From a virus: a DNA stretch of 64,000 nucleotides. Within the stretch, counting starts at the first letter, position 1; each line of letters starts with the position of its first letter. Shown here piece by piece: positions 1,829 through 64,000 of this stretch. Position numbers and translations under genes: made by a program. Location of the stretch: the UHGV virus genome UHGV-0242533. One strand, 5' to 3'. The notes beneath the pieces were generated by a model. That model made no database searches, was not told where the DNA came from, and worked only from the letters and a program-made list of their open reading frames with translations.

Positions 1829-1850
1829 CACACTGGCTTGTATAGGTCTT

Positions 1851-1880: not shown

Positions 1881-1887
1881 TCTAATT

Positions 1888-3470: not shown

Positions 3471-3510
3471 GTTATGTTAGCTCCTATACTATTAATAATT
3501 AATTTGTCGA

Positions 3511-4596
3511 TTAATCTACGAGGAATTTGAATGCGTCTTCGTGACTAACGCGACCCTCTGCGAATGCCTTGGCAACCTTAGCGTTGTCGGGCTTATTGGA
3601 AGTACGAGACTTTGCAGCATCAGACTTCACAACCTTGCGTGGAGCACCGGGACGTTTAATCTTAGCCATCACCTGTTGTTTACCTTTATCAAATTGGTAT
3701 GCTTTATGGAGAGCTAGGAAAATAGACGGACGGTTTTCCTTCAATACTTCTTCTTCAGTAGCACCTAAGTCAATTGCGTATTGCATTAAGTTTTGATATA
3801 AGTTTTCATCCCAATTTGGAATCTCACGTTTCAGAATATTAACACATTCAATGCTCTTGGCTTGGAAAGCTTCCTGCTCTTTAGCTGCTGCTTCCTGCTT
3901 AATACGGATTTGAGCCTGTTCAAGCTGTTGACGGCGAGCTGTGTACTTCTCTAGGAAACGTTTGTTTTCAACATACGCTTGAGGATCTTCTACTGCAAGC
4001 TTGTCCCAATCAAAACCGTTGTAATCTTCAATTACTCGATCTGCTTCTAAAGACGCTAATTCTAATACATCCTTCAAACCTACTACACGTTCCTCAAATG
4101 CTTCCATATGACGCTGAAGAGTTGATTCTCGTTCTGTCATATCAGCACCAGTAAGATAGCCATTAGAAAGTTCTTCAATAGTCATCTCACGTCCATCAGG
4201 AAGGGTGATAACGGTTTCGTAGTCTACATCAAAGACTTCACCTTCACCGTCAGCAGAATCATCTTCATATCCTGCATCGCTTGAGTCTTCCTCATCTGCT
4301 TCAGAGCTTTCGTCTGATTCATCAAATTCTTCCTCATCTTGTTCGACTTCGCCTTCCTCAGTATGATCTTCCCAACCATCTTCATCTTCGAACTTAAGCT
4401 CATTGCTTTCACCGAGAAGGTCGGTATCAAAGTCGAAATCGTCACCGTCTTTTTCCGGGAACTCATCGTCAATGTCCACTTCTGGTTCTTGTTCAGATTC
4501 TAATCGACCGAGTTCTTCTTTGAAAGAACCTTTCAGGTCATCTAGTTGGAGGAAAGATTTAAAATCGTTCGGGTCAATATAATTATCTTGTGGCAT
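3511..4596 (-). CDS. Scaffolding protein (361 aa)
   Basis: Highly acidic central region (D/E runs) with coiled-coil-like C-terminal half; located between portal and capsid genes. Confidence 0.6.
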   Translation of the reverse strand: MPQDNYIDPNDFKSFLQLDDLKGSFKEELGRLESEQEPEVDIDDEFPEKDGDDFDFDTDLLGESNELKFEDEDGWEDHTEEGEVEQDEEEFDESDESSEADEEDSSDAGYEDDSADGEGEVFDVDYETVITLPDGREMTIEELSNGYLTGADMTERESTLQRHMEAFEERVVGLKDVLELASLEADRVIEDYNGFDWDKLAVEDPQAYVENKRFLEKYTARRQQLEQAQIRIKQEAAAKEQEAFQAKSIECVNILKREIPNWDENLYQNLMQYAIDLGATEEEVLKENRPSIFLALHKAYQFDKGKQQVMAKIKRPGAPRKVVKSDAAKSRTSNKPDNAKVAKAFAEGRVSHEDAFKFLVD

Positions 4597-4832
4597 TATG
4601 AAACATCTCCTGCACTATTGATAGCAGCTTTTATGACCTCTTTTAAGCTACCAACCATTTTATACTTTTGATAACAATCTTCGCGTTTCTTATTCTCATG
4701 AGGTTCGGTTTGAACTATCTCGGTCATGAGTCTTTCTTTCAATGCCTCTAATGCTGCGTCAAGACTGCCGTTAAGATTGAGAGCCGCCAAAGCGGCGGCG
4801 TGCTCTTTATTGAATTGTTGTCTAATGTTCAT
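4596..4832 (-). CDS. Hypothetical protein (78 aa)
   Basis: ORF track; start overlaps upstream gene in operon context. Confidence 0.45.
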   Translation of the reverse strand: MNIRQQFNKEHAAALAALNLNGSLDAALEALKERLMTEIVQTEPHENKKREDCYQKYKMVGSLKEVIKAAINSAGDVS

Positions 4833-4841
4833 TCGACGTCC

Positions 4842-7085: not shown

Positions 7086-7145
7086 CTATTCTCTCCCTCG
7101 GTTGATAGCTTAAATAAAAGAAGGGAGGACAAACCTCCCCTTACT

Positions 7146-8687
7146 TTAGTAACTCTGATTCCATCTGCTTACGTTTGCCTCATACAAAGAAGCACTTCCG
7201 TAGCTAACGTCATGTTTAGAGCGACCACGATGTGTAACAGAGCACGCTGAATAGCGCATTGCGTCCATTAAGTCATCATGTTCTTTAATAATCTTACCAA
7301 CCTTACGGTGATACCTAGCTTTCTCTTCGAATAGCTTAGCGTTAGCGGCTGTGTTAAAGACCTTAAAGCGTCCACTCATCATTCTTTCTCGGATATCTGT
7401 GATTCCCGGTTCTACAAAGAAGTTCTTTTTACCATCCATTCCAATTTTGTTGTAGAAGGTCTCACTCTGTACATTAACTCCTGCATTCTTATAGAATTGA
7501 GCAACAGATGAGCCACTACCTTTCTCAATATTGTCCGCATCGTGCGGCAGGATGACAGGAATCCACTGACCACGACCATTAATAGCTGGAGCATGATACA
7601 CTGGAGTAAAGCCACCTTCTTTATATGAGTCGTAAACATAGATAGTATCCGTGTTTGCATCGTAAGCTGTCCAAACAGCAGCAGTTGGGTGATCAATACC
7701 AATATCAATTGCACAGACACGTTTCCACGTATCAGGAATTTCGAATGGTTCACATTTAATTGTGTCATCCGATACATCATAAATCAAACCACTTCCTAAC
7801 AATGGCATACCTTTTGAACGCATTTCTAATTGCCACGCTGGAATACCTTCAGTCATATCTTTTATATCTTGGTCAGTGATATGTCCACCTAGGTCTGCAT
7901 GAGCATCCCACCAAGAAGCATTCTGGAAATATAGAGAACCTGTGTTCTCATCCCCTTCACCTTTCATAAATTTATCTACCAGTTCAGTTAAACCGTTCTC
8001 TGGTGTAGCCGTAATTGTAACTAGACCTTTAGTTGTGAGTGTACGTGTGACACACTGTGCGAATATAGCCATAGACTCGTATGGATCTTCTTCGTCTAAC
8101 CAAATGTAGTCAACTGTTGCACCCATCAATGTGTGTTCACCCTGTTGGGTTGAACGGAATTCTAATGTACTTAAACCGTCAAACTCTCCTCTTTCATTTT
8201 GATGTTTGATTTGTACGATTTGAAGTTTGTTACCATCTCGTTCTATCGTGTCAATGACGATAGCATCACGAGGAATGACACCTGTCCCTAATAAATTTGT
8301 ATCCTTTCCGATAGGTGTACCAAACAATTCCTTTTGCAATACTTTCCTTGTGGAATCCCCTGTAATACCAACTGCCCATGCTAAGATAGGTCTTTTAAAT
8401 TTATATCCTGTCCACCAAGTTGGGTAGCGACCTGTGACATGACAAGCAAACTCGTATGCCTCGCTATAAGATTTACCAACACGGTTCGCTGCACACAAGA
8501 ATCTAAAGCGATGCTTCAATCCTGCTGCATAAAATTTCTTTTGGAAGTCATACGCCTTGAAAGACAAAATCCTATTATACTTCCTCCATTGGTCACGCTC
8601 TTTCAACATATTCAATAGTGCTTTCTTTTCATCTACACTAAGGTTGTTACCAGTTAGAGCTTCATAAATTTGTTTATCTAATGACAT
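7146..8687 (-). CDS. Terminase large subunit (513 aa)
   Basis: N-terminal P-loop-like segment (AANRVGKS) and C-terminal acidic nuclease-like segment; size and position. Confidence 0.75.
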   Translation of the reverse strand: MSLDKQIYEALTGNNLSVDEKKALLNMLKERDQWRKYNRILSFKAYDFQKKFYAAGLKHRFRFLCAANRVGKSYSEAYEFACHVTGRYPTWWTGYKFKRPILAWAVGITGDSTRKVLQKELFGTPIGKDTNLLGTGVIPRDAIVIDTIERDGNKLQIVQIKHQNERGEFDGLSTLEFRSTQQGEHTLMGATVDYIWLDEEDPYESMAIFAQCVTRTLTTKGLVTITATPENGLTELVDKFMKGEGDENTGSLYFQNASWWDAHADLGGHITDQDIKDMTEGIPAWQLEMRSKGMPLLGSGLIYDVSDDTIKCEPFEIPDTWKRVCAIDIGIDHPTAAVWTAYDANTDTIYVYDSYKEGGFTPVYHAPAINGRGQWIPVILPHDADNIEKGSGSSVAQFYKNAGVNVQSETFYNKIGMDGKKNFFVEPGITDIRERMMSGRFKVFNTAANAKLFEEKARYHRKVGKIIKEHDDLMDAMRYSACSVTHRGRSKHDVSYGSASLYEANVSRWNQSY

Positions 8688-8756
8688 ACTTCCTCCAGTT
8701 TAAAAATAGAAAAGGGAAAGTCCCTTCGTCAAAGAACCTCCCCTTCTTTCCTTTAC

Positions 8757-9230
8757 TTAACTCTCGTCCGCTTCCTCCCCCTTTTCAGCGTCCTCAGAGT
8801 TGTCTTCTTCTGGAGGCATAACGTCAACACCAAGTGCTCCAGTCAAGAAGTCCTTGATTTGTGCATTCAATGATTCTTCGTTGATTACATTCTCTTCCTC
8901 AATCTTAACTTCAACAGAGGCCGCCTTAGGATATACCAGATCTGCAACTTTTGATGCAGCCTTGAATCTAAGATCAGGTGGAATATTAGGATCTTCGTAA
9001 ATTTGAATTAACACTTCATCAGGAGACAAATGACTTGCAGCAACACGGTCCAACATTAATTGTGTCAGTTTACCTCTACTACCTTTGGGTCGTCCGAATT
9101 TATTTCCCTTTTGAAACTTCCCATTGCTTGGGTTCATACCACGGCTTTCAAGTTCTTCCGTTACTCCGGGTAATCTTCCTGTAACCTCAGCTACCTGTGC
9201 AGGCGTGAGTTCTCCGTTTTCTCCAAACAT
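8757..9230 (-). CDS. Putative terminase small subunit (157 aa)
   Basis: Small basic/acidic protein directly upstream of the large terminase gene. Confidence 0.45.
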   Translation of the reverse strand: MFGENGELTPAQVAEVTGRLPGVTEELESRGMNPSNGKFQKGNKFGRPKGSRGKLTQLMLDRVAASHLSPDEVLIQIYEDPNIPPDLRFKAASKVADLVYPKAASVEVKIEEENVINEESLNAQIKDFLTGALGVDVMPPEEDNSEDAEKGEEADES

Positions 9231-9286
9231 TTTATACTCCTTCTACATTATCAACAACACAAAAAGCCTCCCAACGGAGGCAAATA

Positions 9287-9982
9287 TTACTTACAATCAC
9301 CAACGGACAGGTTAAACATCTTACCTAGAGCAATCGTCTCACCTTCCCACGGAAGTTCTGCACCCTTCTCTTCCTCTAAAAGAATAGAGCCGTCGACCAA
9401 AAATTTTTCGTAGTCTCGCAGTGCGTCGTCTACTAACTCACTCTTGTGAATCCACGTAATTGTTTCTGTACCATCCTCTTCGATTCGAACATCACGATGC
9501 CATTCATCTTTGGAGGTAATGTAATCATGGAGCATTTCATATTCAGCTTCTTCAATCATCTCAATCATTGCACGAGCATAGTCAGGGAGGTGATCATGTT
9601 TAGTAGATTCGTATTCAACTACTTCCAGAGTAGAAGGCTTAGCCCGTGCAACTTCTTCAAGTACTTTTGATCGATCTTTGTAGTAGTTCTCATATTTATC
9701 ACCAATAGTACCGACTTGAAGTCCACGGTATTGTTCTACTAAACTCATCATATCTTTCTTCTCCGTAATAGTTGGTTTAAGAATACTTCCACTATATAAA
9801 TCTTGTACAGCCAGTCCTGAAACATTTCCCATAGTTTCTAAATGTTGCAAGCTACAACCAGAACGACACAGCTGTGAATTGTAGTCAACCATGTCCATTG
9901 CTTTGATGTGGAAAGGAGAACCAGAAGGGAAACTACCTCCATAAACACCTTCCATGTTAACTGCGATTATTTTATTATTCAT
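9287..9982 (-). CDS. Hypothetical protein (231 aa)
   Basis: ORF track; operon context. Confidence 0.5.
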   Translation of the reverse strand: MNNKIIAVNMEGVYGGSFPSGSPFHIKAMDMVDYNSQLCRSGCSLQHLETMGNVSGLAVQDLYSGSILKPTITEKKDMMSLVEQYRGLQVGTIGDKYENYYKDRSKVLEEVARAKPSTLEVVEYESTKHDHLPDYARAMIEMIEEAEYEMLHDYITSKDEWHRDVRIEEDGTETITWIHKSELVDDALRDYEKFLVDGSILLEEEKGAELPWEGETIALGKMFNLSVGDCK

Positions 9983-10229
9983 TTGTATCTCCCTTGCTGT
10001 AATCTTTGTATGTTTCTACTTTGTAAGTGCGGAATGCTCTGAAGAAGAGCCAACCTAAGCTACTCACATCAATTGTGATATCGAAATCTGTATCATCATC
10101 TAAATCAACAAGACGACCTAAGCATGTAGCTTCCATCCCTTCTTCAGAGTCACTGTTGACTACGAAAGCGTATGTCTCAGTTCTGAACCGAGGCACCAAC
10201 TCTGATAAAAAGTCTAATACTAAATTCAT
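9975..10229 (-). CDS. Hypothetical protein (84 aa)
   Basis: ORF track; first gene of the minus-strand operon. Confidence 0.4.
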   Translation of the reverse strand: MNLVLDFLSELVPRFRTETYAFVVNSDSEEGMEATCLGRLVDLDDDTDFDITIDVSSLGWLFFRAFRTYKVETYKDYSKGDTNE

Positions 10230-10248: not shown

Positions 10249-10392
10249 AAAGTATAAAGGGCACATCATAAGATCAACCCGTAAAGGCCACGTCATACCA
10301 ACAACCCGTGTACGCTGAAGTAAAGGGCATGTCATAAAGGGGACTTCATGTTAAGGCACCCTCACATTAAGGCCATGTCATTAGTCATACTT
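10249..10392. repeat. Array of about six degenerate direct repeats (AAAGGSCAYRTCAT-like)
   Basis: Read directly from the sequence: aaagggcacatcat, aaaggccacgtcat, aaagggcatgtcat, gggacttcatgt, aaggcaccctcacatt, aaggccatgtcat. Confidence 0.5.
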
Positions 10393-10769
10393 GATACACC
10401 TTGCTATAGAGAAGCAGATGAATAAACAGAAGACTATTACTAACCAGAATATCCATTCCATTAAGGTCTGTCCATCCATGTGCTGTGTTTAAGCTTACCA
10501 CATTTACTACATCTCCAAGTGGACTTATAAAGGGTGTGAACTCTTTCATCCCCGTAAGCTTTGTGTATCCGATAGTACTCATGATCACATTTGAATTGCT
10601 TAATGATTAACTTAATTTTCCACATAAATTCTCTTTCAACCTTATATATAAGAGTTTAAAATTCTGATTTGACCGAATGGGGCTAGCCGCTCGCCGCGCG
10701 TTTCCTAAAAAGGGGGAGTCCTCATTTAAAAAAGGGTTATTGGCAATGCCTTTACCTTCCCTTTACATG

Positions 10770-11340
10770 TTCCACCTTTCCCCGTGCCTACTCCCCGTAG
10801 TTATTCCCCCGTGTATCCACACCACATAAATGGTGGGGCATACTTTTATGCCTCTGTATACTACCCAATACATTACCTACCCGTTTATTTAGTTCCCCTT
10901 TAAAGAGTGGATGAGAGGCCAGCACTGTATAAAGGTCTGTATAATGATTAGATTAAGGCACTATGAATAAGCTAATAACACCCCCTAGTTACTACCCCAT
11001 TCCCCCCATAGTTTGATTGTAAATAGTTTCAATAGTTGTTATTATGAGTGCAATATATGATGGGTGCATGGAATGCACAGCTACGAAGTAGCGTTGTATG
11101 TATGTATTAATTAAGTGGAAAGATTGATACTTTCTTTTATGTTCTTTCTTTTTCAGCGTACCTGAGCGTAAGCGAAGGGTGAGTACGTAGTACGAACGGT
11201 CTTTGATGTTTGAGTAGATGATTTTGGTTAAGTGGTATATTACTACCGCACTATCTGGCTATCCTTCCCCGTGGTCTGTTCTGCGGTTGTGTGTTCCCCG
11301 TCCTATATAGATAGTAGAATTAATTCACCCGTGGTCTTGC
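10770..11340. repeat. ORF-poor region with recurring C-rich motif TTCCCCGTG(G)
   Basis: About six copies (tttccccgtgcc, actccccgtag, ttcccccgtg, ccttccccgtggtc, gttccccgtcc, tcacccgtggtc) between the divergent late and early blocks. Confidence 0.4.
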
Positions 11341-20985: not shown

Positions 20986-21090
20986 ATAGCTCTGCGCCGT
21001 TAGCTCAATTGTATAGAGCAGTTTCCTTCTAAGAAATTGGTTGGAGGTTAGAATCCTCCACGGTGCGCCAAATTGAATGAGAGGTGTGTT

Positions 21091-53121: not shown

Positions 53122-53523
53122 ATGGCGAAGTCTGAGAAGACACGCTGTAGTGGAACGTGGACTGAAGCTCGTTATAACTCTTTCATCAAGTCAGGGATTC
53201 GTTCTCTGACTAGAAAGTGGAAGCCCATGTTCGATGCACTAGCAGACGCCAAGACAGAGCAGAAGATTAATCCAAAGACAGGTAGACTGGCAATGCACTT
53301 TAAGTGTGCCATGTGTGGTTCTGACCACCCTGTAAAGGACATGGCTATCGACCATATAAATCCTATCGTACCTCTTGACCATGAAGCAACTTGGGATGAA
53401 ATAATCTCTCGTGCTCTGTGTGAGAAAGAGGGTTTTCAGGTTCTGTGTAAAGACCCTTGTCATAAACTAAAAACTAAGACGGAAAATGATGCAAGAAAAC
53501 AATTCAAAAAAGGAAAAGAGTGA
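53122..53523 (+). CDS. HNH-motif nuclease (133 aa)
   Basis: CAMCGSDHPVKDMAIDHINPI ... CHKLKT (C-x2-C ... H ... C-H). Confidence 0.5.
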   Translation: MAKSEKTRCSGTWTEARYNSFIKSGIRSLTRKWKPMFDALADAKTEQKINPKTGRLAMHFKCAMCGSDHPVKDMAIDHINPIVPLDHEATWDEIISRALCEKEGFQVLCKDPCHKLKTKTENDARKQFKKGKE

Positions 53524-54044: not shown

Positions 54045-57000
54045 TCACTCCTTAGGTCGAACTCTTACACGGAGTCTTGATTGACGCTTACTGCGTTCAA
54101 GCTTCTCTGACAATGAGCCACGTTTAATCTTCGGCTTCCCTTCGTCATTAAACTTCTCCAAGAACTGCAAGTACTCAGTACGATTCGTTGTCTTGTAAGA
54201 AGGAATCTTAATATCAGGGTTCTCTTCAATCACACGTCTCATCTTCGCTACATCATCCCTACCAAGCAACTTACTCTTAGCCTGTTCAGCTGTAGAACCA
54301 AAGATCTTCTCCAGTGCTCTGGATTTGTTACCACCTGCGGAAGAAGCACCAAGTTTAGCAATGGCAGAATAATCATCAGCACTAAACCAAGCTACTGGAT
54401 TATCACCATACTTCTTCTTGTTTTCAGCAGCAGTCTGCAATGCACGTACAAAGCGACGGTTGTTACCAGCCTTATCTGCACCATGAACTCTGTCTAAAAC
54501 TTCAGCCACACTGACTAACTCATCCAAGCTTTTCCCACTCAAGAAAGCTTTCTCTACTTTATCAGCAAAGACCTCTTCCTGTTGTTTAATGCTTTCCAAG
54601 ATATCAGAACTTGCTTGAGATCTTTCATCATCAGGCAGAGCAGAACGAATCTTCTCCATCTCCAATTCTTCCTCTTGCAGTTTCTTAATATCAGAGTCAA
54701 CCTTCTGAGCTTCCTCAATAGCCTTCCTAGTATCCGCATCCAAGTTATCAAGCCTGCCTTCAGTATCTCCAGTAACTTTAACAATCTCTTTCTCGATAGG
54801 AGTCATTGATTCATACTTCTTAGCGAATTTCTCAACATCAGCTTCGATACGAGAGCGAGCATTCTGATGTTCAGTCGGAGTCATAGGCTTCTCAAGAAGT
54901 GCATAACGGTTATCCATATAGGAACCAGCAAATGCTTCAGCATCCTCTCTAGATATGCCCTTATCTTCCATAGTACGCATCAGGCGGCGATGAATGTCAT
55001 CACGTTGACGTTGTACTGCCATAAGGTCATTCTCACGCTCTTGGGCTGCTTTAAGCTCTTCACTGCGCTTAACTCTCTTGTCCACATCAAACTTACGATT
55101 CATCTCTTCCGCTTGCTCATACATCTTGTTCCACTTAGCCTGACGAGCATCTTCCTCTGCATCAGTTAAACGACGCTGACGATCAAGGTAATCTGACTCG
55201 GCGTTATGGATACGTTCAATGTAACTACGGAACTTCTCTGGAGGAACTGGAGAGTTCTTATCATGGTGAGCAGCCAACTGTTTCAATGTACGAGATTCCT
55301 GAGCCTCACGAACAGGTTTAGGTAAACCTTCCATCATCTTCTCAATCTCACTCTTCTGAGCTGCAATAGCCTCGAGAGTTTTACGTTCATTCTCAACAGC
55401 AGCCTTAGCATCTGAACGAGCCTGAGCTTTATTTTTCAGAGTAGCAAGACGTTCTTCACGAGCCTGTATGTGTTTAGCAAAAGCTTCGTACTGAGAATTC
55501 TTGTTAGCTCTGTTGAAGGCATTCACTTCTCTGTTATAGGTATTAATAAACCCATCCCAAATATCCTTCATCTGACCAACTTCCAAAGCCTCTTCCCTAC
55601 CAGCCTTCTCTGAAGATTTAAACTTCCCATCTACAAAGTCATTCATCAGCTTACGCATAGCATCTTTCTGAGCAGGACGTAAAGGTTCTGAATCAATCAA
55701 AGCATCAATCTCAGACTGAAGTTCTTTCTTCTGGTCAACCAGTTTAGGAGCATCTTTCTTATCAAAAGCTTTGTTCTCTTCTAGAGCTTGTTGATACAGC
55801 CTATCAAACTCATCCTCACGCTGCTTCTGATACAACCTTTCTGCACGACGTTTCAGACTATCCAAGTTAGTTACGTTCCCACCTAAACCTTTCTCTTCAG
55901 CACGTAATGCCTTAGTAGCAATGTCTTCTGGTAGGCCACGTGCCTTAACCCATTCAGCAAAATTAGTTCGTACAGTATTATTCTTAGCAGTAGCAATGCC
56001 TTGCTGAGAAGCTAGCTGATTACGAGCCATTTCTTCATGACGTTCAGTGTTGATAGCATTGTCTTCCTGACGAATACGACGCATCAATTCCTTAGGGTCA
56101 CCTTTATAAGCCAAGAAGTTTTCAGCAGTAGCTTTAGCCTTAGCAGCCTTAGAGTACAGAGAACGAGCAAAGCGTTCTGCACGATCTTTAGTAGCCTGAC
56201 GAGCAGCACTAGACATAGCAGCTAAACGTTCTACACCACTTGCCGGTTTAACGTCCTGTACAGCTTCCTTAGGAGCTTTAGGAGCACGGGCAGGTAATGG
56301 CTCAGCTTTGATTGTTGGTTCCTCTACGGTCGATTCTGGAGCTTGTGCGGCCTCTTCTTGAGCACGACGCTGTTCCACCTGTTTAACTGCACGTCTTTGA
56401 GCAACTAAATCACGAGCCGTAAGAGGGGCTTCTTGAGGAGCAGAAGAAGGAAGATTTTCTTCCGTCACAGTACTAGAAGAAGGCTCCCGAACCGGTTCGG
56501 TTTCTACGTCATTTTGCGTCTTAAATTTAATGTCATCAACAACTGGTTCTTCTTCCATCTTAGCACGAGCTTCATCAGCAGCAGATTTAGCACGAGCAAC
56601 TTCCAAATCACCACGAGCAAGAGAGCGGATAGCTTCACTGTTAGATTCTTGTTGCTTAACACGTTGGGAACGAGCACGCTGGGAAGAGAAGCGATTCAGA
56701 GCATATTTAGCAGCACCCAGTGTGTTCATGACCAGACTAGGTGAAGAAGCCTCACGGAAGCCATCATCAGTCAGGGAAGTCCAGCCACGATCTTGGTTGC
56801 TCATGAACTTAGCTGTATTGTTCAGAGTGTAAGCATCTTGGATAGGATTAAAACCTTCAGGCATACCTTTCAGTTTCTTCAACCCACCGATAGCTTTCTT
56901 CATCTCTGGAGAAACATTATCAGCCATCTTCTGTAGTTCAGCAGCTTTCTCTACAAAGTTATTAAAGTCTTCACCATCACGAGCTTTGAATCGATTTGCT

Positions 57001-58352
57001 TCATTGTAGAAAGTCTTGTAGGCATCAATGAAGTCACGGTCAGCTTGTGTACGATTCTTAATATCGATCGGACTACCAGTAAAATCACCAGAAGCTCGGA
57101 GAGAAGTTAATTCACGATCTAGGTTATCCAGAACATCTGTAAGAGCTTTCGTGTTGTCTTTGGTGTAGTCAGCCATTGCATCCTTCATAGCAACAGCCTG
57201 CTTCTGGTTGTGCTCATTATCAGCGAAGGCTTTACCACGAGTCTTAGCCGGAGAAGCTAAAGGGTTAAGGCCCGGAATGTTGGAATGTTCTTTCTGAACA
57301 GAAGCAGCTTTCTCAGCACGAGCTTGGTCAGTATTAAGAATACGCTGAGCAGCAGGAGAATCTACAGCAACAGCATCTGTGATACGGAATCCGTTCTCGT
57401 CGAGAAGGTTCAGAGCAGAAGCAGCATTAGCAGTTTCAGCTTTAGAGTAAGCCTCTTTCAATTCATCAATATTTTTAGCACTACGAATCAGTTCGTCATC
57501 AGCAGCAATATCAGTCTTCGCATACTCTGGAGTGTTCTTGAAGACAGCAGAATTCGGACGGCTAATCAAACCATGAACACCACCAACTGCACCACCAAAT
57601 GCAGCACCCATAGCCCCTTCTTCGATAACACCTTCCAATGTCTTAGCTAGATCATTGTCATCACCATACTTGTTCTGAACTTCAGCAGCACCAACAAGAG
57701 CACCGCCTTTAGCACCAGCAACTGCGTTACTAGCAACGTTCTGACCAATACGACCAAGAGCTGATTCAGCTGTCCCAACAGCACCCGGAAGGATTCTTTG
57801 AGCTGCATAGTTAGCACCACCAACTAAGGCTGCATCTAGAACAGACTTACCTTCTCCCTCTTCAGGGGTTTGGTCTGCATACGCACGACCGGTCTCACGA
57901 CCTGCGATGATAGCAGCGGCAGCTAATGGGTTAGCAACTGTCAGACCAATGTCGGCAACCACCCCAGCATACTGACCAGCAGATTTACCAATCCCATCCT
58001 CAATCTTATCCATACGTTCTTTCAAGAGATTTTGAGCGTTCTCTTGCATACGCTTCCCGTAACCGGTTTGTGCTCCAGTTAGATCTTCACCAATCTCAAC
58101 TAAGCCTCCAATACCCCTAGCAAGATTAGCAGAGATGTTAGCACTGCCGGACTGAAGAGCATTTGACACACCTTGAGCAAACTCACCTATAGCACCACGT
58201 TCTTCTTGTTGTGGTTGTGCTACTGGCTGTTCCTCAGGAATAGAGCCACCTGCTGCCTTATATTGTTCTCTCATTCGAGCTTGTTGCTCCGGAGAGGCAT
58301 TCAGATACGCAGGAGCTTTGGAAGCTTCTTCCCACGGTTTAATGTTAGCCAT
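54045..58352 (-). CDS. Very large virion internal / tape-measure-like protein (about 1435 aa; start at internal ATG with AAGGAG SD)
   Basis: Gly/Ala-rich N-terminal region then about 1000 aa of charged coiled-coil-like sequence; minus-strand TAATGTATA element at 58391-58399. Confidence 0.6.
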   Translation of the reverse strand: MANIKPWEEASKAPAYLNASPEQQARMREQYKAAGGSIPEEQPVAQPQQEERGAIGEFAQGVSNALQSGSANISANLARGIGGLVEIGEDLTGAQTGYGKRMQENAQNLLKERMDKIEDGIGKSAGQYAGVVADIGLTVANPLAAAAIIAGRETGRAYADQTPEEGEGKSVLDAALVGGANYAAQRILPGAVGTAESALGRIGQNVASNAVAGAKGGALVGAAEVQNKYGDDNDLAKTLEGVIEEGAMGAAFGGAVGGVHGLISRPNSAVFKNTPEYAKTDIAADDELIRSAKNIDELKEAYSKAETANAASALNLLDENGFRITDAVAVDSPAAQRILNTDQARAEKAASVQKEHSNIPGLNPLASPAKTRGKAFADNEHNQKQAVAMKDAMADYTKDNTKALTDVLDNLDRELTSLRASGDFTGSPIDIKNRTQADRDFIDAYKTFYNEANRFKARDGEDFNNFVEKAAELQKMADNVSPEMKKAIGGLKKLKGMPEGFNPIQDAYTLNNTAKFMSNQDRGWTSLTDDGFREASSPSLVMNTLGAAKYALNRFSSQRARSQRVKQQESNSEAIRSLARGDLEVARAKSAADEARAKMEEEPVVDDIKFKTQNDVETEPVREPSSSTVTEENLPSSAPQEAPLTARDLVAQRRAVKQVEQRRAQEEAAQAPESTVEEPTIKAEPLPARAPKAPKEAVQDVKPASGVERLAAMSSAARQATKDRAERFARSLYSKAAKAKATAENFLAYKGDPKELMRRIRQEDNAINTERHEEMARNQLASQQGIATAKNNTVRTNFAEWVKARGLPEDIATKALRAEEKGLGGNVTNLDSLKRRAERLYQKQREDEFDRLYQQALEENKAFDKKDAPKLVDQKKELQSEIDALIDSEPLRPAQKDAMRKLMNDFVDGKFKSSEKAGREEALEVGQMKDIWDGFINTYNREVNAFNRANKNSQYEAFAKHIQAREERLATLKNKAQARSDAKAAVENERKTLEAIAAQKSEIEKMMEGLPKPVREAQESRTLKQLAAHHDKNSPVPPEKFRSYIERIHNAESDYLDRQRRLTDAEEDARQAKWNKMYEQAEEMNRKFDVDKRVKRSEELKAAQERENDLMAVQRQRDDIHRRLMRTMEDKGISREDAEAFAGSYMDNRYALLEKPMTPTEHQNARSRIEADVEKFAKKYESMTPIEKEIVKVTGDTEGRLDNLDADTRKAIEEAQKVDSDIKKLQEEELEMEKIRSALPDDERSQASSDILESIKQQEEVFADKVEKAFLSGKSLDELVSVAEVLDRVHGADKAGNNRRFVRALQTAAENKKKYGDNPVAWFSADDYSAIAKLGASSAGGNKSRALEKIFGSTAEQAKSKLLGRDDVAKMRRVIEENPDIKIPSYKTTNRTEYLQFLEKFNDEGKPKIKRGSLSEKLERSKRQSRLRVRVRPKE

Positions 58353-58390
58353 AACGTCTCCTTTTATAAATAAAAATGTCCTACCCCCTA

Positions 58391-58399
58391 TATACATTA
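58391..58399 (-). promoter_or_regulatory. TAATGTATA promoter-like element (minus strand)
   Basis: Plus strand tatacatta, about 40 nt upstream of the 58352 start. Confidence 0.4.
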
Positions 58400-58419
58400 T
58401 AGAAGGCAGGACTTAGGTC

Positions 58420-60075
58420 TTATTGAGTGAACCAGCTAGTGTCTTCGACAGCCGATAAAGCACCATTAAGCTTAGGATTGGTTGCTGCACCACCAACAGA
58501 TTCTTCTGCTTGTTCAGAGAAAACACCGAGTGGGTCATAGAAACCGCCAGAAGGGATTGCACGGTTGACCAATGCAGTAGCCCTCTTCTTATCCATACCA
58601 GAACCGATGTACGCTTCGATAGTAGCTTTCTTAGCATCAGCAACACCTTTCATTGCAGAGGTGTGACCAACGTTAGCCTGCTTACGAGCATAAGAAAGAG
58701 CAGCATCAGTAGGACGCCATCCTGACTTCAGCGCAAACTTGTTACCAACACGAACAAAGATTGATGGGTCTTCTGCAAAATGTCCCAAGTCTTCTTCAGT
58801 AAGAGAACGAGTAGCACCGATTTCAGCCCTTGCGGAGTTCATGATAGCCTGCATGTAAGCAGAGCGAGCTGTCTGATAGTCTTTCTCTTTAACTGCTTTG
58901 TCAGCCAAATCCAAGTCTTTGTTGGACTGGTTAAACAGACCACCTTTCTCTGCCCACTGCTTAGCAACTGTGCCTTCAGCTGTGTTCTGAGCAAGACGAA
59001 CTTCTTTCGGGTTAAAGTTAAAACTCTGAGCAGCTTGTTCAGCACGTTCAGCCTTAACCTTATCACGATAACTAATCAACTCTTTCTGACGTTCAAAGTT
59101 CATGTCAGCCCTCTTTTCAGCGGCACGACGAGTTTCATCAGCACGCTCACGCATAGTTTGCTCTTGAATCTGTTGACGTCTATCCCATTCAGCATTTTGT
59201 CGTTCTTCACGAGCAGCATACAGCGCTTCTTTCTGAGCAGGGTCTACAGCTCTCATCTTCAGTAGAGATGGGTCTCCGTTAGCAATAGCAGCTGCAATTG
59301 AGTCTTGAGAGAAGCCTTGTTCAATCAAAGCATCACGGTTAGCTTCCAGTTGCTTCTTAGTCTCATCTTGATTAGCCATTCCCTGACCGATCTGGAAAGC
59401 TTCGATAGGAGACTTACCTGACATGATTGAAAGACCTACACCCATCAAACCTGTATAGAAGCTAGAGTTCTGATAGAAAGGCTCTTTCTGTAGTTTATTC
59501 CAAGCTTCTGAAGGGTCTTTAGCTTTCGCAACTTGCAAGATATCGTTGTTAACACGTTCCTGATCTTTAGCACGAGTAGCAGCAGCCATCCCATCACCAG
59601 TGTCTTGTCCTTGAGCAAGAGTGTTAATCACACCCTGTGCCTGTTCCACCTGAGAAGGAGTAAACTCCATAGGACCAGCTTCTAACGGTTTAGTAGGAGG
59701 TGTTACCGGAAGAGGGTCACTAGGCATAAGCCCAGCATCCTGTAAACCTTGATCAGTGGATAGGTTAGGGTTAGACGCTACAGGGGCCGGTGCTCCAATA
59801 TCAATACCCTGAAGACTGGTAGAAGTTCCTTGATTCTGCTGTTCCATAAGACGTTGCTGAAATCCCGGATTAACCATAGCATTCTGATCTTCTTCTGCCT
59901 GAGAGACAAGACCCGCAAGAGATGAAGGTACAGCAGGACGTTGATACATAGAAATATCTGCTGTCTGAGTTGGTCTAGCCATATAAGGAGAGGCCGAAGC
60001 CGCTCCCGGATTAACACCATAGAAAGTATTTCTCGGGTCACGACTTCTGACCTGAGCGTAAGTTGTCTGTTGCAT
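58420..60075 (-). CDS. Virion protein (551 aa), probable internal/ejection protein
   Basis: ORF track; operon position. Confidence 0.5.
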   Translation of the reverse strand: MQQTTYAQVRSRDPRNTFYGVNPGAASASPYMARPTQTADISMYQRPAVPSSLAGLVSQAEEDQNAMVNPGFQQRLMEQQNQGTSTSLQGIDIGAPAPVASNPNLSTDQGLQDAGLMPSDPLPVTPPTKPLEAGPMEFTPSQVEQAQGVINTLAQGQDTGDGMAAATRAKDQERVNNDILQVAKAKDPSEAWNKLQKEPFYQNSSFYTGLMGVGLSIMSGKSPIEAFQIGQGMANQDETKKQLEANRDALIEQGFSQDSIAAAIANGDPSLLKMRAVDPAQKEALYAAREERQNAEWDRRQQIQEQTMRERADETRRAAEKRADMNFERQKELISYRDKVKAERAEQAAQSFNFNPKEVRLAQNTAEGTVAKQWAEKGGLFNQSNKDLDLADKAVKEKDYQTARSAYMQAIMNSARAEIGATRSLTEEDLGHFAEDPSIFVRVGNKFALKSGWRPTDAALSYARKQANVGHTSAMKGVADAKKATIEAYIGSGMDKKRATALVNRAIPSGGFYDPLGVFSEQAEESVGGAATNPKLNGALSAVEDTSWFTQ

Positions 60076-60088
60076 ATTTATCTCCTAA

Positions 60089-61057
60089 TTAAGTACTAGC
60101 CAACCCACCGATTACACCCCCAGCTAATGCACCCCAAGGCCCAAAGGAAGAGCCAGCTGCTGCACCACTCATAGCTCCACCAAGGAAACCACCTTTGCCA
60201 CCAGATGTTTTAGTAGTTGTAGTTTGTCCGAGAGCACCATTAAGTACACCTGCTGCACCGAGTTGGTTATTGATATCTTGCCATCCCCAGTTAGCTGCGT
60301 TCTGAGCATTCTGGTAGGCATTATCATATTCATTCTGTTGTTGCTGTTGTTGCTGCAACCCTGCATTCCATTGATTCATCATTTGTTGTTGAGACAAATT
60401 AGCACCCTGCTGACCTAGGTTAGAAAGGTTAGAACCAATATTGGAAAGACCAGAGAGAGCAGCTGCCTGATTCTGTCTATTACCAGAGAGAATGCTTTCA
60501 GCTTGGCTGATAGCCGAGTTGTAGGCACTGTTGGTAATGTCTGTTGCTTGACCTTGCATCTGATTCAGAGCATCACCTTGGGCAAAAGACTTAGCCATAC
60601 GAGCACCTGAGCCTTGTTGACCAGCAAACTGTTGAGCTAATTGAGGAAGAGCATTACGTGCCAAGTTCTGTTGAACCTGCTCGTTATTAGCTGTAATAGC
60701 TGCTTGCACAGCGTCATCATCATACAGCTGACCAGCGAGAGCACCAATTTGTTCTCCAGTAATCCCACCTTGTCCAGAGAGGCTCTGATAGCCTTTATAG
60801 GCATTATCTAGATAACCCAAGCCTTGACCTGCTGCATCCATATATTGCTGTGAGAGAGTACCTAGGGCGCCAGATTGTGCTAAGTTGCTAAGTGCCTCTG
60901 TCTGGTTGTTATTAAACCCTACATTATCTCGATAAACATAATCCCCTGAACTGGTATTACCAATCTGCTTATTGAGTTGGTCAATATACTGTTGAATGTA
61001 TTCAGGGCGAATCATTTGGGAAGTAGTTTTACTTCCGCCTCCACCAAAAAGTGACAT
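60089..61057 (-). CDS. Gln/Asn/Gly-rich low-complexity virion protein (322 aa), paralog of next gene
   Basis: N-terminus MSLFGGGGSKTT...; poly-Q tracts. Confidence 0.5.
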   Translation of the reverse strand: MSLFGGGGSKTTSQMIRPEYIQQYIDQLNKQIGNTSSGDYVYRDNVGFNNNQTEALSNLAQSGALGTLSQQYMDAAGQGLGYLDNAYKGYQSLSGQGGITGEQIGALAGQLYDDDAVQAAITANNEQVQQNLARNALPQLAQQFAGQQGSGARMAKSFAQGDALNQMQGQATDITNSAYNSAISQAESILSGNRQNQAAALSGLSNIGSNLSNLGQQGANLSQQQMMNQWNAGLQQQQQQQNEYDNAYQNAQNAANWGWQDINNQLGAAGVLNGALGQTTTTKTSGGKGGFLGGAMSGAAAGSSFGPWGALAGGVIGGLAST

Positions 61058-61069
61058 AGATATTCTCCT

Positions 61070-62122
61070 TTAGTTTGCTCCAAATGCCCCTAAGACACCA
61101 CCTAAGATATTACTACCTGCTGTGGATAACCAGTTAGACTGACCTCTCTGTTGAGAAAGATTAGAACCTCCAATCATAGGACCAGCCATGCCAGATTGCC
61201 CACCTGAGTTGTTATAGGAACTCCAAGCATTCTGAGTCTGTTGGTTAGGAGAGAAAGCGCCCATACGACCTGCAATACCTAAACCAGTGATACCAGCACC
61301 TAGGAGCTGTTGTCCTACGTTAACGCCCGGAGCGGCATTCTTAATTGTATATCCAGCCATTGGACTTACACTATTTAATACATTAAGTTGGTTGTTAAGC
61401 TGATTCCATCCATACTGCTGAGAGCCAATAGCGTTCTGCCAATTGATATCAGCTTGTGCTTGAGCCTGTTGCTGTTGTAGATTGCCAGCCATAAGTTGAT
61501 TCTGAATAGCTTGTTGAGTTGCCTGAACACCTTGAGCACCAAGATTGAGATTCTGTCCAGCTAGACCAGACTGAGCACCAAGCAAACCTCTCTGGAAGTT
61601 CTGGTCTTGTTGCAGGGCACTGATTCCCATATTCTTGCCACTGATAGTACGAGCTAAGTTTGTATTAGCACCGTTCAGAGCAGCACCTTGAGCAGCAGCC
61701 CTACGGAGAGAACCTGAGTCAGAACCATTTCCGAGAGATACATTAGAAGCTGCTTTACTAGTTGCTTGAGCAAGAGCAGAATTATTTAACCCTTTACTGA
61801 AGTTATTAACACCCTCGGCTGTCACTCCACCACCATTGACAATATTCTGATACTGCTGGGCAAGGGAATTCAGTTGGTCCAAACCTTGCTGCGTGCGAGG
61901 TGTGTACATGTCAGCCAATTGCTTTTGAGTTGTAGAAGAAGCTAGGTTATTCAGAGCACCCTGTTGGTTACTGTTAAACCCAGCCAGTTGTTGGGAAATA
62001 AATCCCTGATCATTGTTCTGCATCTTCTGAGCATTAGCAACAATCTGCTTCAGCAATGCATCAACCTGAGAGGAAGGAGCCACTGTGGTTTTGCTAGAAG
62101 CTGATTTTCCAAATAAAGACAT
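61070..62122 (-). CDS. Gln/Asn/Gly-rich low-complexity virion protein (350 aa)
   Basis: N-terminus MSLFGKSASSKTT...; same composition. Confidence 0.5.
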   Translation of the reverse strand: MSLFGKSASSKTTVAPSSQVDALLKQIVANAQKMQNNDQGFISQQLAGFNSNQQGALNNLASSTTQKQLADMYTPRTQQGLDQLNSLAQQYQNIVNGGGVTAEGVNNFSKGLNNSALAQATSKAASNVSLGNGSDSGSLRRAAAQGAALNGANTNLARTISGKNMGISALQQDQNFQRGLLGAQSGLAGQNLNLGAQGVQATQQAIQNQLMAGNLQQQQAQAQADINWQNAIGSQQYGWNQLNNQLNVLNSVSPMAGYTIKNAAPGVNVGQQLLGAGITGLGIAGRMGAFSPNQQTQNAWSSYNNSGGQSGMAGPMIGGSNLSQQRGQSNWLSTAGSNILGGVLGAFGAN

Positions 62123-62141
62123 AAGTCCTCCTTAAAGATTA

Positions 62142-62924
62142 TTACTTTACACCAATGCTAGCCAAACGTCTGAGCACTGCTTGTGTTTGTGGACTGTACT
62201 GAGAACCTGCTGCATGTGGTGCACTTGCCCTCTGAACTGTTTGAGAAGTAGGGGGCTTACCAGCAAGCATAGCAGCTACTCCTAATACTGCATTACCAAA
62301 GTTCTGTTGAGGCTTCTGGTCTTCTCCTTCCTGCACTTCATCAGAGTAGAACTCTACCGGATTACCTCCTAAAGCTCCCGTCTTAGAAGCAGTAATCTCC
62401 GCCTGAGTTGAAGCTTGTGCAGCTTTCTCTCTGTCTAGTAAGTCAGGACTAAACTGATTGACTGGTTGGACAGCTTGTAAAGCTCCAATAGGGTTAGCAA
62501 TCTGAGAAGCTGCATCACCATAGAAAGGAAGGAAGTGTTTGTTGTTCATAGAGTCAAGGGCCTGAGGAGTAAACCCCCTTTTACCAGCGAACATCTGCTT
62601 AGCTCCACCAATACCTTCTGAATAACCAACCATTGCTTTCTTAACATCACCATTAAAAGCTTTAAGGTTGTCTCTGATATAGCGAGCACCCATGTCGATA
62701 TTCTTGGCTGGGTCAAGCCTGTCTTCTAGTTTATAACCATAATCTTTAGCTAACCCTTTACTGATCTGCATCAAACCAACAGGACCAGTTCCGGAAGCCA
62801 CCTTAGGACGACCACTAGACTCTCTTTGAATTACAGCATGAATCAAAGCAGCTGGGATTCCATACTTCTTTGAAGCCTGTTGAACCATCGGGTCTAGTTC
62901 TTCTATACCCATTCTAATTGTCAT
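62142..62924 (-). CDS. Lytic transglycosylase (SLT domain) virion protein
   Basis: Motifs AVIQRESSGRP and GLMQI near the N-terminus. Confidence 0.75.
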   Translation of the reverse strand: MTIRMGIEELDPMVQQASKKYGIPAALIHAVIQRESSGRPKVASGTGPVGLMQISKGLAKDYGYKLEDRLDPAKNIDMGARYIRDNLKAFNGDVKKAMVGYSEGIGGAKQMFAGKRGFTPQALDSMNNKHFLPFYGDAASQIANPIGALQAVQPVNQFSPDLLDREKAAQASTQAEITASKTGALGGNPVEFYSDEVQEGEDQKPQQNFGNAVLGVAAMLAGKPPTSQTVQRASAPHAAGSQYSPQTQAVLRRLASIGVK

Positions 62925-62933
62925 AAGTTCTCC

Positions 62934-63968
62934 TTATTGTATGCTTCTAAAAATCTTCCTAGCATCTAGGACTGGAATTTGAAGGGAGATAGCCCCACCA
63001 CCACCCATATCGTAGTTCCTATCCCACTGGAACATATATCGACCATACCCTGTACTAAAAGAAGACCCATTCATTATATGAGACCTTGCGTGTTGGAAAT
63101 ACCAACTACCAGCTTGACCTCTAATTGAACCAGCCCCACTAGTCAGAGGAATCATGGGGTACGTAAGCGTGGTGTTTCCACCGCTCATAGGCATAAATCG
63201 GTCAACCATAAAAGGTGTTCTGTAAGTAGAGAATACACACTGAGACCCGTTAGGTGAGTAAATATTCAATCCACCATTGTGAGTAGGAACTCCAGCTCCA
63301 TTACAAAACACGGCAATCCTTACGTTATTGATTGTTCCTGTCTGGTTATTGTTTCCGTTATCATATGTTCTATTTTGGTAAACACTAATAGTACGACTTC
63401 CTGAGTCATATAGAAGTCCCTGACCTCCAGACCAGTTAGCAAACACAGAAGCTCTTGACATATCAAAACCACTGATTGCTGGAATTTGCATAGAACCATT
63501 AATGTTTCCTTCCCAAGCCCAAATACATTGACCAACAACTCCAGCATCTGATATAGAGAAGTAATCAGCTGTGTTTGAAAAGGTTATCCCGTAGTTCCTA
63601 TTAGCTCTAGGCCATATTTGATATACGTTGAAAGCTACATCAAACAGTGGATTACTTCCGGGATCCATGTTTATACTAACCCTGAAAGTGGTATTGTTCA
63701 CAACACTGATGTTACTTACAACATACACATCAGGGACAAGGTTAGGAGGGACTTCCCATTGCCAACACAAAGACCCGGTTGGGACTATAATGATTTGGCC
63801 TGAGCCATCCCATCCAGAAATAGGGAAATCTCTACTACCTCCATTAAAGTTATAATTGCCACTAACCCTGTTTTTAAATTGAGGGAAAGTAGAATCACTG
63901 TCAATAAAAAGCTCAGCCGGAGAAGCTGGTCCCGGTCCGACTGGCGTTGTCCATATTCCATATGCCAT
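62934..63968 (-). CDS. Hypothetical structural protein (344 aa)
   Basis: ORF track; Gly/Asn/Ser-rich, beta-rich composition. Confidence 0.5.
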   Translation of the reverse strand: MAYGIWTTPVGPGPASPAELFIDSDSTFPQFKNRVSGNYNFNGGSRDFPISGWDGSGQIIIVPTGSLCWQWEVPPNLVPDVYVVSNISVVNNTTFRVSINMDPGSNPLFDVAFNVYQIWPRANRNYGITFSNTADYFSISDAGVVGQCIWAWEGNINGSMQIPAISGFDMSRASVFANWSGGQGLLYDSGSRTISVYQNRTYDNGNNNQTGTINNVRIAVFCNGAGVPTHNGGLNIYSPNGSQCVFSTYRTPFMVDRFMPMSGGNTTLTYPMIPLTSGAGSIRGQAGSWYFQHARSHIMNGSSFSTGYGRYMFQWDRNYDMGGGGAISLQIPVLDARKIFRSIQ

Positions 63969-64000
63969 ATTACCAACTCCCTATTCTAATACGGAGTGTA

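Follow-up and report, generated by a model that had tools for sequence, protein, structure and literature searches.

Paralogous Q/N-rich ejection proteins gp21 and gp22 of a Kuravirus as candidate membrane-inserting subunits of the DNA conduit

The conduit by which short-tailed phages pass their DNA across the Gram-negative envelope has been structurally solved for only a few of them: T7, the N4-like phage DEV and, lately, P22. T7 gp14 and DEV gp73, which are carried inside the head and then expelled, are proteins of 150–200 aa with a classical hydrophobic helix, and the pore activity of DEV gp73 has been experimentally demonstrated. P22 gp7, which forms the extracellular/outer-membrane channel on the tail hub gp10, is a protein of 229 aa whose 20-residue leader is cut off by the host protease OpdA; the product, gp7*, is a channel-forming ejection protein assembled as a helical bundle bound by Q/N hydrogen bonds (bioRxiv 10.64898/2026.09.03.749273). 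In phage Pa223, gp56 is a virion protein by mass spectrometry and a predicted outer-membrane channel with C-terminal transmembrane helices, the channel role being an AlphaFold3/MemBrain prediction (bioRxiv 10.1101/2025.06.11.659172). In the coliphage SU10, the virion contains gp20–24, which are gone once the genome has been released (PMC9509320). In particular, gp21 and gp22 were detected by mass spectrometry in virions (sequence coverage of 53% and 49%, respectively; PMC4281155) and were missing from genome-release intermediates (PMC9509320), for which reason they were named ejection proteins. The SU10 ejection proteins have been proposed to build a translocation channel (PMC9509320; PMC4281155); they have no resolvable density in the virion cryo-EM reconstruction, and the nozzle lengthens by 28 nm (PMC9509320). 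The published SU10 work on gp21 and gp22 is limited to their virion presence and release, and the five Kuravirus ejection proteins have so far been little more than names.

We analyzed a 64,000-nt stretch of virus genome UHGV-0242533 (the window), which belongs to a Kuravirus, a phiEco32/SU10-like coliphage, its nearest DNA record being IMEP8 (93.6% identity). Two of its genes, here called B and A (table 1), encode proteins equal in length to SU10 gp21 and gp22, which they match from end to end with 97% and 99% identity, respectively, and both match phrog_4287, "DNA ejection protein" (E-values of 4.9e-117 for B and 5.8e-109 for A). There is essentially no difference between the window pair and SU10 gp21/gp22; with these, and with the counterparts in phiEco32 and Paul that carry the annotation "DNA injection protein", it shares the five-gene cassette, its order and the PHROG family. 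An earlier note, made from the letters of the window, had suggested that the two products are virion-internal proteins that could form part of an ejection conduit, a claim to be dropped if they were absent from virions. The SU10 orthologs are found in virions, and the claim stands. Because the published mass spectrometry covers near-identical orthologs, the virion-internal and ejection role is already established, and what the window holds is the same pair in another Kuravirus isolate, its virion and ejection status being largely known already.

Table 1. Features of the ejection cassette and of the gp21 and gp22 orthologs, in window coordinates
Feature	Position	Strand	Remarks
SLT lytic transglycosylase (SU10 gp20 ortholog)	62142..62924	minus	Pfam SLT, E 7.3e-24; opens the ejection cassette
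Gene B (SU10 gp21 ortholog)	61070..62122	minus	350 aa, Q/N/G/A/S-rich, gp21-type paralog
First glycine-zipper-like hydrophobic segment of B, residues 272–290	61253..61309	minus	QLLGAGITGLGIAGRMGAF; top hydropathy window of B
Second glycine-rich hydrophobic segment of B, C-terminal, residues 331–349	61076..61132	minus	WLSTAGSNILGGVLGAFGA; second-highest hydropathy window
Gene A (SU10 gp22 ortholog, "DNA injection protein")	60089..61057	minus	322 aa, gp22-type paralog
Q7 run of A, residues 235–241	60335..60355	minus	part of the conserved AG-x-QQQQ helix motif
C-terminal glycine zipper of A, residues 289–322	60092..60193	minus	GGFLGGAMSGAAAGSSFGPWGALAGGVIGGLAST; uncharged, putative membrane-inserting
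551-aa ejection protein (SU10 gp23 ortholog)	58420..60075	minus	phrog_12130 over full length
Large ejection protein (SU10 gp24 ortholog)	54045..58352	minus	phrog_14629; 1435 aa

The cassette order needle–DUF6453–SLT–gp21–gp22–gp23–gp24 matches that of Paul, SU10 and one distant relative, the needle gene falling past the end of the window. In the distant relative, whose two copies are only about 43–49% identical to those of the window, it reads needle–DUF6453–SLT–B–A–563 aa–1422 aa. The lytic transglycosylase named earlier as a neighbor indeed lies directly upstream of the pair, and its product matches the SLT domain of T7 gp16 (phmmer, E-value of 1e-11). The large protein, described there as a coiled coil, was said to be adjacent as well: its size of 1435 aa agrees when counted from the ATG that bears a Shine–Dalgarno sequence (codon 16; 1450 aa from the first ATG), but the 551-aa gene stands between it and the pair. 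By size and position the 551-aa protein is a candidate periplasmic-tunnel subunit, and by size and gene order the 1435-aa protein is a candidate inner-membrane/cytoplasmic subunit; phmmer found no similarity of these two neighbors (the larger taken at 1450 aa) to the ejection proteins of LUZ24, T7, P22 and phiM5, including T7 gp15 and LUZ24 gp51. The composition of the large protein is A/E/K/R-rich.

The two adjacent reading frames have exactly the positions, the MSLFG starts (MSLFGKSAS in B, MSLFGGGGS in A) and the 320–350-aa sizes first reported for them, and each is preceded by a strong Shine–Dalgarno sequence, AAGGAGG for B and AAGGAGA for A. Their reported dominance by Q, N, G, A and S is equally clear, as these residues make up 61.5% of A and 62.9% of B, versus 33.4% over all long open reading frames in the window. 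The mention of poly-Q tracts was, however, overstated, since the runs present are short: one Q7 and a QQQ in A, and one Q4 in B. Charged residues are scarce (9.0% in A, 6.9% in B), and the two proteins carry opposite net charges, A being acidic (−7) and B basic (+8). Composition-adjusted BLASTP aligns A and B with 30% identity (E-value of 2e-13); they are old paralogs, a relationship that is new in this analysis. We found no Pfam or NCBIfam family for full-length A and B, and sequence searches of the PDB, for which A, B and the gp22 profile served as queries, returned nothing meaningful in a copy of the database without P22 gp7.

The most conserved part of these proteins is the C-terminal glycine zipper. 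In A, it is the sole long stretch without charged residues and without Q/N, and glycines 293, 294, 298, 302, 306, 309, 313, and 317 are invariant among 24 homologs. B has two glycine-rich hydrophobic segments: the first has the conserved residues G275, G277, L281, G282, G285, G288, and F290, and the LGGVLGAFGA ending of the second is kept in closer homologs. The Pfam glycine-zipper models gave no match above threshold for the window zippers; that of A gave sub-threshold similarity to the glycine-zipper 2TM family (E-value of 0.011), Gly-zipper_YMGG and Bacteriocin_IIc. With Kyte–Doolittle values of 0.9–1.2 over 19 residues, the hydropathy of the zippers is lower than that of classical transmembrane helices.

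Profile comparison shows that gp22 is homologous to a Bruynoghevirus particle protein, LUZ24 gp53, a link that is likewise new in this analysis. HHalign pairs the gp22 type and the LUZ24 gp53 family with a probability of 98.9% (E-value of 2.8e-17 over 261 columns), and the corresponding HMM score is 24.5, while shuffled sequences reach at most −0.1. The gp21 type gives only 31.8% when compared with LUZ24 gp53 directly, so that its connection runs through its paralogy with the gp22 type. Homology to the gp22 type is nearly full length (about 313–322 aa), and the two share an N-terminal GGS-K-x-TT, a central AG-x-Q-rich helix, a GGT-x-TT motif and a glycine-rich hydrophobic C-terminus. Like the window proteins, LUZ24 gp53 is a virion protein encoded upstream of ejection proteins of about 500 and more than 1000 aa. 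It differs in being single copy, whereas Kuravirus has a paralogous pair, in an N-terminal extension of about 25 residues relative to the gp22 type and in a Q+N content of 16% versus 25% for the window type. Judging from protein lengths (313, 505, and 1055 aa), genus and gene order, LUZ24 gp53 probably corresponds to Pa223 gp56.

The same module of about 300 aa is, again as a new observation, linked elsewhere to Peptidase_S74 and to cell-wall hydrolases inside one large protein. It forms the N-terminus of proteins of 800–1600 aa in which SLT, Hydrolase_2, Phage_lysozyme or Peptidase_M15_4 domains are found. In these polyproteins (Salmonella SeKF_80 gp27, Sinorhizobium phiM5 gp27, the Manatee Spring phage and many metagenomic sequences), the module closes with GGT-TTT and the glycine zipper; behind the zipper comes an autocleaving S74 chaperone (SD-x-R/K-x-K), often with a peptidoglycan hydrolase after it. 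S74 stands right after the module in the SeKF_80 gp27 ortholog (20.5 bits, slightly under the Pfam cut-off), in phiM5 gp27, in P0095/P0120-type proteins and in at least 7 of 48 long relatives; phrog_4287 itself takes in the S74 region. In "internal virion protein D" of the Manatee Spring phage, the module is followed by S74 and then by an SLT domain resembling that of the window. The window differs in having SLT as its own gene, in the duplication of the module and in the lack of S74: Pfam gave no Peptidase_S74 match in either protein. Both stop where S74 starts in P0095, P0120, and SeKF_80 gp27, and the S74 of these relatives begins exactly at the position at which the zipper of A ends. A 322-aa gene beside P0095, considered as a second copy of the module, instead encodes an unrelated acidic protein.

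The comparison with P22 gp7 rests on resemblance. The composition of gp7* is similar (57.6% Q/N/G/A/S, 10.5% charged), its gene lies downstream of the tail-needle gene as do those of the window, and its C-terminus, ...PWGAAIGGGIGLLG, resembles the window zipper, with a shared PWGA..GG.IG motif. With an eight-sequence alignment of the gp7 family, only 28 C-terminal residues align (probability of 37%, E-value of 3.6e-4); the match has a z-score of about 7 against shuffles, yet the reversed sequence also scores high, and we therefore rejected it as proof of homology. gp7 is also shorter than the window proteins, in which there is no leader of about 20 aa, as they start directly with MSLFGGGGSK and MSLFGKSASSK. 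When both family alignments were compared by hhalign with single sequences of P22 gp14, gp7, gp20, gp16, and gp26 and of T7 gp13–16, the only match was a local one to gp7 (33%). For T7 gp14, the hhalign probability was at most 0.1%, and the match could not be told from those of shuffles. The likeness to T7 gp14 and DEV gp73 is one of proposed slot, a small membrane protein followed by a periplasmic tunnel and a large inner-membrane protein, and neither the small size nor the classical hydrophobic helix of these proteins is found in the window pair, for which pore formation is a putative role.

Their paralogy, the glycine zipper, the homology with LUZ24 gp53 and the fusions to S74 and hydrolases make gp21 and gp22 channel candidates, which can now be tested as such. 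We consider it probable that this paralogous pair of ejection proteins supplies the helical segment of the DNA conduit that inserts into a membrane. Each would be mainly alpha-helical and Q/N-rich, ending in a glycine-zipper segment. Once the tail needle is released, gp21 and gp22 would pass through the nozzle and oligomerize as a helical-bundle tube, in which Q/N side chains might provide hydrogen bonds between subunits, while the glycine-zipper C-termini would enter one of the membranes of the host, most probably the outer one. The pair would thus be the membrane-proximal segment of a trans-envelope conduit to be completed by gp20, whose SLT domain would cut peptidoglycan, by gp23 (551 aa), which would span the periplasm, and by gp24 (1435 aa), which would reach the inner membrane and cytoplasm.

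A quite different reading would make A and B disordered Q/N/G-rich polymers, a flexible gel or filler of the capsid or conduit with no defined structure. The extreme composition, the absence of any Pfam domain and the lack of resolvable density in SU10 virions all speak for it, as do the AlphaFold2 monomer models from family alignments, whose pLDDT is below 50 nearly everywhere (39–40 for both paralogs), values also expected from disorder and too low for any comparison of folds. We nevertheless regard this reading as very unlikely. Both genes are under strong purifying selection, at or below the level of their neighbors (dN/dS of 0.033–0.037 for B and 0.025–0.05 for A, versus 0.04–0.10 for the neighboring SLT and gp23 genes), and show no indels relative to Paul or SU10. 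The length of gp22-type proteins is held at 312–327 aa down to about 37% identity, and in the family alignments many positions occupied by W, Y, N, P, and G never vary. Alignment-averaged hydrophobicity has an alpha-helical periodicity whose observed value is reached by 0–1 of 500 shuffles, and the AlphaFold2 models place helices at residues ~18–270, albeit at low confidence. The Q-runs are not only short but encoded by a mixture of CAA and CAG, and the aligned position of the Q7 run of A is kept across the two paralogs and LUZ24 gp53, a protein lower in Q/N to which colinear homology extends. Of the features of prion-like Q/N sequences, the compositional bias is present, whereas poor conservation, variable length and repeat-type coding are absent. 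Selection, nearly fixed length, helical periodicity and the conserved glycine zipper speak against the flexible or gel-forming low-complexity nature that the earlier note had attributed to the pair.

Alternatively, gp21 and gp22 may be ejection proteins with a role elsewhere than in the outer membrane, inserting into the inner membrane, lining or capping the periplasmic tube, or acting as a chaperone or plug by which gp23 and gp24 stay competent for export while inside the capsid. The present evidence fits either membrane; the 28-nm extension of the SU10 nozzle may mean that tail proteins themselves cross the outer membrane instead; two paralogs suggest two positions in the conduit; and the opposite charges of A and B fit differing environments as well as pairing. 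On the other hand, the gene order from SLT through the pair to the 551-aa and 1435-aa proteins parallels the scheme of T7, DEV, and Pa223, and the Bruynoghevirus homolog is assigned, by prediction, to an outer-membrane channel, which leads us to view these other roles as rather unlikely. The S74 domain of the relatives raises the further idea of trimeric fiber- or needle-like proteins that extend the tail or needle instead of forming a channel. Such a chaperone is typical of trimeric tail fibers and spikes, it directly follows the module in several long relatives and within phrog_4287, and the phiM5 homolog is annotated as a tailspike. We nonetheless hold this to be highly improbable, given that the window proteins are free of S74 and end where it would start, that SU10 gp21 and gp22 leave the particle at genome release and are absent from the tail reconstruction, and that what follows in the fused relatives is peptidoglycan hydrolases and long stretches of internal-protein type rather than receptor-binding domains. 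A trimer would, moreover, also fit an assembly intermediate of a 9- or 12-mer channel.

Beyond the probable role of gp21 and gp22 as a membrane-inserting part of the conduit, these relationships hint that ejectosome subunits share ancestry across several podophage lineages. It is conceivable, albeit doubtful, that the phrog_4287 module represents a widespread, so far unrecognized class of podophage ejectosome membrane-channel subunits, ancestrally matured by S74 at the end of the zipper, and that Kuravirus swapped in a duplicated, oppositely charged, co-assembling pair. If so, the class would unite Kuravirus gp21/gp22, Bruynoghevirus gp53/gp56, 7-11-like phages and hundreds of metagenomic polyproteins, with perhaps P22 gp7, and S74 maturation would hold the hydrophobic tip trimeric and chaperoned until virion assembly. 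As a minor observation, the profile also gave a weak match to the C-terminus of the SLT protein of the window itself, which we took as compositional.

The two adjacent Gln/Asn/Gly-rich ORFs pointed out in the earlier note, genes A and B, are present exactly where it placed them, on the minus strand, each preceded by a strong Shine–Dalgarno site. Q, N, G, A, and S make up 61.5% of A and 62.9% of B, versus 33.4% in the long ORFs of the window, and charged residues 9.0% and 6.9%, respectively. The term "poly-Q tracts" overstates the glutamine runs, which amount to one Q7 and one QQQ in A and one Q4 in B and are encoded by mixed CAA and CAG codons. The lytic transglycosylase (SLT) gene does adjoin B, but a 551-aa gene lies between A and the large ORF described as neighboring, so that "next to" skipped one gene. 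Judged from their alignment, A and B are paralogs (30% identity, E 2e-13 with composition-adjusted scoring). Their net charges are opposite, −7 in A (K+R 11, D+E 18) and +8 in B (K+R 16, D+E 8), which might, speculatively, reflect hetero-assembly or pairing, or else differing positions in the conduit.

Features of the ejection cassette and of the rest of the window
Feature	Coordinates	Strand	Remarks
Head-gene-sized ORFs, 747/513/361/352 aa (portal, large terminase, scaffold, capsid)	within 1034-9982	-	fit to SU10 by ORF size only
tRNA-Arg, anticodon TCT, single	20994-21070	+	among plus-strand genes
133-aa ORF, HNH endonuclease-like by ...DHINPIV...CHKLKT... pattern	53122-53523	+	junction of plus-strand genes and ejection cassette
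Ejection cassette region	54045-63968	-	at 54-64 kb
Gene A	60089-61057	-	ORF, 322 aa, MSLFGGGGS...
Gene B	61070-62122	-	ORF, 350 aa, MSLFGKSAS...
SLT lytic transglycosylase	62142-62924	-	upstream of B; Pfam SLT, E 7e-24
DUF6453 protein, SU10 gp19 equivalent, 344 aa	62934-63968	-	between needle gene and ejection cassette

By megablast, positions 58000-64000 matched 99 phage records, almost all of them from Escherichia phages; vB_EcoP_IMEP8 (93.6%) and phage Paul (93.0%), two members of Kuravirus (subfamily Gordonclarkvirinae), ranked highest. A is 99% identical to SU10 gp22 ("putative DNA injection protein") and B 97% identical to SU10 gp21 ("hypothetical protein"), both at equal length and without gaps; the pair is the already known gp21/gp22. 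In SU10, gp20 (SLT), gp21, gp22, gp23 (551 aa here), and gp24 (the large protein) were found by LC-MS/MS in 2014, with coverages of 53.4% for gp21 and 49.1% for gp22 (PMC4281155). These orthologs are packed inside the head and are expelled when the genome leaves; the head has no resolved density for ejection proteins, and gp21 (350 aa) and gp22 (322 aa) appear among the structural proteins of Supplementary Table 1, with no model (PMC9509320). Thus, the central reading of the earlier note, a virion and ejection role, and the virion proteomics that it suggested had already been published for close to identical proteins, and A and B are almost certainly ejection proteins.

The same note took the composition as a sign of flexible or gel-forming material, a part of its interpretation that is not supported. 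Compared with Paul and SU10, A and B have no indels, and their dN/dS of 0.025–0.05 equals or is lower than that of the neighboring SLT and gp23 genes (0.04–0.10). The length of gp22-type (A-like) homologs stays at 312–327 aa down to ~37% identity, family alignments contain invariant W, Y, N, P, and G positions, and alignment-averaged hydrophobicity displays alpha-helical periodicity inside predicted helices, at a value reached by 1 of 500 shuffles for the B family and 0 of 500 for the A family. AF2 models built with family alignments (helices over ~18–250/270, then coil) have a pLDDT of 39–40, unfit for fold comparison and, alone, compatible with disorder. The near-fixed length, dN/dS, invariant positions, and periodicity argue against such disorder, and the evidence says that A and B are not floppy low-complexity material.

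Conservation in the gp22 type peaks over the last ~35 residues, GGFLGGAMSGAAAGSSFGPWGALAGGVIGGLAST, which follow a TTT-K-TSGGG motif; G293, G294, G298, G302, G306, G309, G313, and G317 do not vary among 24 homologs. This glycine zipper is the only long stretch of A free of charged residues and Q/N, and B has two such segments (residues 272–290 and 331–349). Searched alone against Pfam, the zipper of A gave suggestive matches, all under the cut-off, to the glycine-zipper 2TM domain (E 0.011), Gly-zipper_YMGG, and Bacteriocin_IIc.

An iterated family profile matched LUZ24 gp53 (313 aa) colinearly with a score of 24.5 (maximum of 300 shuffles, −0.1; reversed sequence, −25.9). In reciprocal profile–profile comparison with 22 homologs of LUZ24 gp53, HHalign gave the gp22 family 98.9% (E 2.8e-17, 261 columns) and the gp21 (B-like) family only 31.8%. 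Because LUZ24 gp53, gp51, and gp50 (313, 505, and 1055 aa) equal Pa223 gp56, gp54, and gp53 in lengths and order, we infer that LUZ24 gp53 is equivalent to Pa223 gp56. The latter was found in virions by mass spectrometry and is predicted to form the ejectosome's outer-membrane channel: transmembrane helices were predicted at its C-terminus, and AlphaFold3 modelled the channel as a nonamer (bioRxiv 10.1101/2025.06.11.659172).

No similarity of the A/B families to T7 gp13–16 or to P22 gp14, gp16, and gp20 was detectable. P22 gp7, whose gene lies downstream of the needle gene, has almost the composition of A/B (Q/N/G/A/S 57.6%, charged 10.5%) and a C-terminus, ...SGAIAGAG...STPWGAAIGGGIGLLGSLF, recalling the ...SGAAAGSSFGPWGALAGGVIGGL of the gp22 type. 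P22 gp7* is a dodecameric helical bundle with Q/N hydrogen bonds on the tail hub, forming an extracellular/outer-membrane channel (bioRxiv 10.64898/2026.09.03.749273). Only a 28-residue C-terminal segment aligns in profile–profile comparison (37% probability) and reversed-sequence controls also score well; gp7 is therefore kept as the best functional analogy and, at most, as a possible homolog. P22 gp7 (P22 record 9369-10058) and the LUZ24 gp53 family (LUZ24 record 10258-11199) share a 20–26-residue N-terminal leader that stops immediately ahead of a KGG motif and is removed in gp7 by host OpdA, which suggests that N-terminal processing may occur in the Bruynoghevirus protein as well; the Kuravirus proteins, unlike these, start directly with MSLFGGGGSK.

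When 1.8 billion representative proteins were searched exhaustively with a profile, 373 matched at E<=1e-3. Many are 800–1600 aa long and carry the whole ~300-aa Q/N-rich module N-terminally, the zipper often running straight into a Peptidase_S74 intramolecular-chaperone/autoprotease domain (...F|SDxR/KxK...), after which some continue into a cell-wall hydrolase. Among 48 long members scanned, seven have S74 at Pfam level and five SLT, Phage_lysozyme, Hydrolase_2, or Peptidase_M15_4. The 1185-aa "internal virion protein D" of one complete phage genome combines the module (2–273), S74 (277–327), and an SLT domain (601–694) matching the SLT protein of the window. Cultured phages with ~410–470-aa module+S74 proteins are Salmonella phage SeKF_80 (Moazamivirus; S74 at 20.5 bits, just below the Pfam 22-bit cut-off) and the LUZ24-like Sinorhizobium phage phiM5, whose gp27, a detected component of the virion proteome, is encoded immediately upstream of internal virion proteins. 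S74 is absent from A and B, which both end where it would start. Many long relatives devoid of S74 (P0139, P0164, P0170, P0180, P0196, P0213, and others) have a recurrent, sometimes repeated R/K-GG-R/K-V/I-x-G-Y-A-x-GG motif after the zipper (residues ~300–340). The C-terminal half of the window's SLT protein (residues ~69–218) is likewise Q/A/G-rich and weakly matches the gp21/gp22 profile (score 15.3; shuffle maximum 7.8), a match that could reflect composition or be the trace of an ancestral module–S74–SLT-like fusion. In a distant relative (85.7-kb contig), the paralogs are only ~43–49% identical to A/B and the cassette is entire (needle, DUF6453, SLT, B of 334 aa, A of 322 aa, 563 aa, 1422 aa), so that the A/B duplication is, on this comparison, old.

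In the mechanism that we propose, A and B would be helical subunits oligomerizing once past the nozzle, their Q/N-rich helices acting as polar inter-subunit zippers and their glycine-zipper C-termini inserting in a membrane, most likely the outer one. In this scheme, gp20 would cut peptidoglycan and, judging from size and gene order only, gp23 might span the periplasm and gp24 reach the inner membrane and cytoplasm. The specific membrane-channel role has about an even chance of being right, and the overall reading, ejection proteins with such a role, is somewhat favored. The links by homology and domain fusion add modestly to what was known and make the gp21/gp22 role testable.

The large ORF (start region 58353-58397, minus strand) encodes 1450 aa from its first ATG, which lacks a Shine–Dalgarno site; codon 16 is a second ATG, preceded by AAGGAGA, from which 1435 aa are encoded, and from these signals the protein is therefore probably 1435 aa long. 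It is annotated as 1473 aa in SU10 and Paul, so its length varies between isolates, and gp24 is labelled "Nuclear Pore Complex" in the SU10 supplement (PMC9509320). The DUF6453 protein was not detected in SU10 virions (PMC9509320); the position of its gene is kept in the distant relative and recalls that of P22 gp14, which separates gp7 from the needle gene. Compared with the SU10 and phiEco32 records, the window is circularly permuted: plus-strand ORFs, presumably early/middle genes, separate the head genes from the ejection cassette, and the tail genes (gp10–18 equivalents) fall outside.
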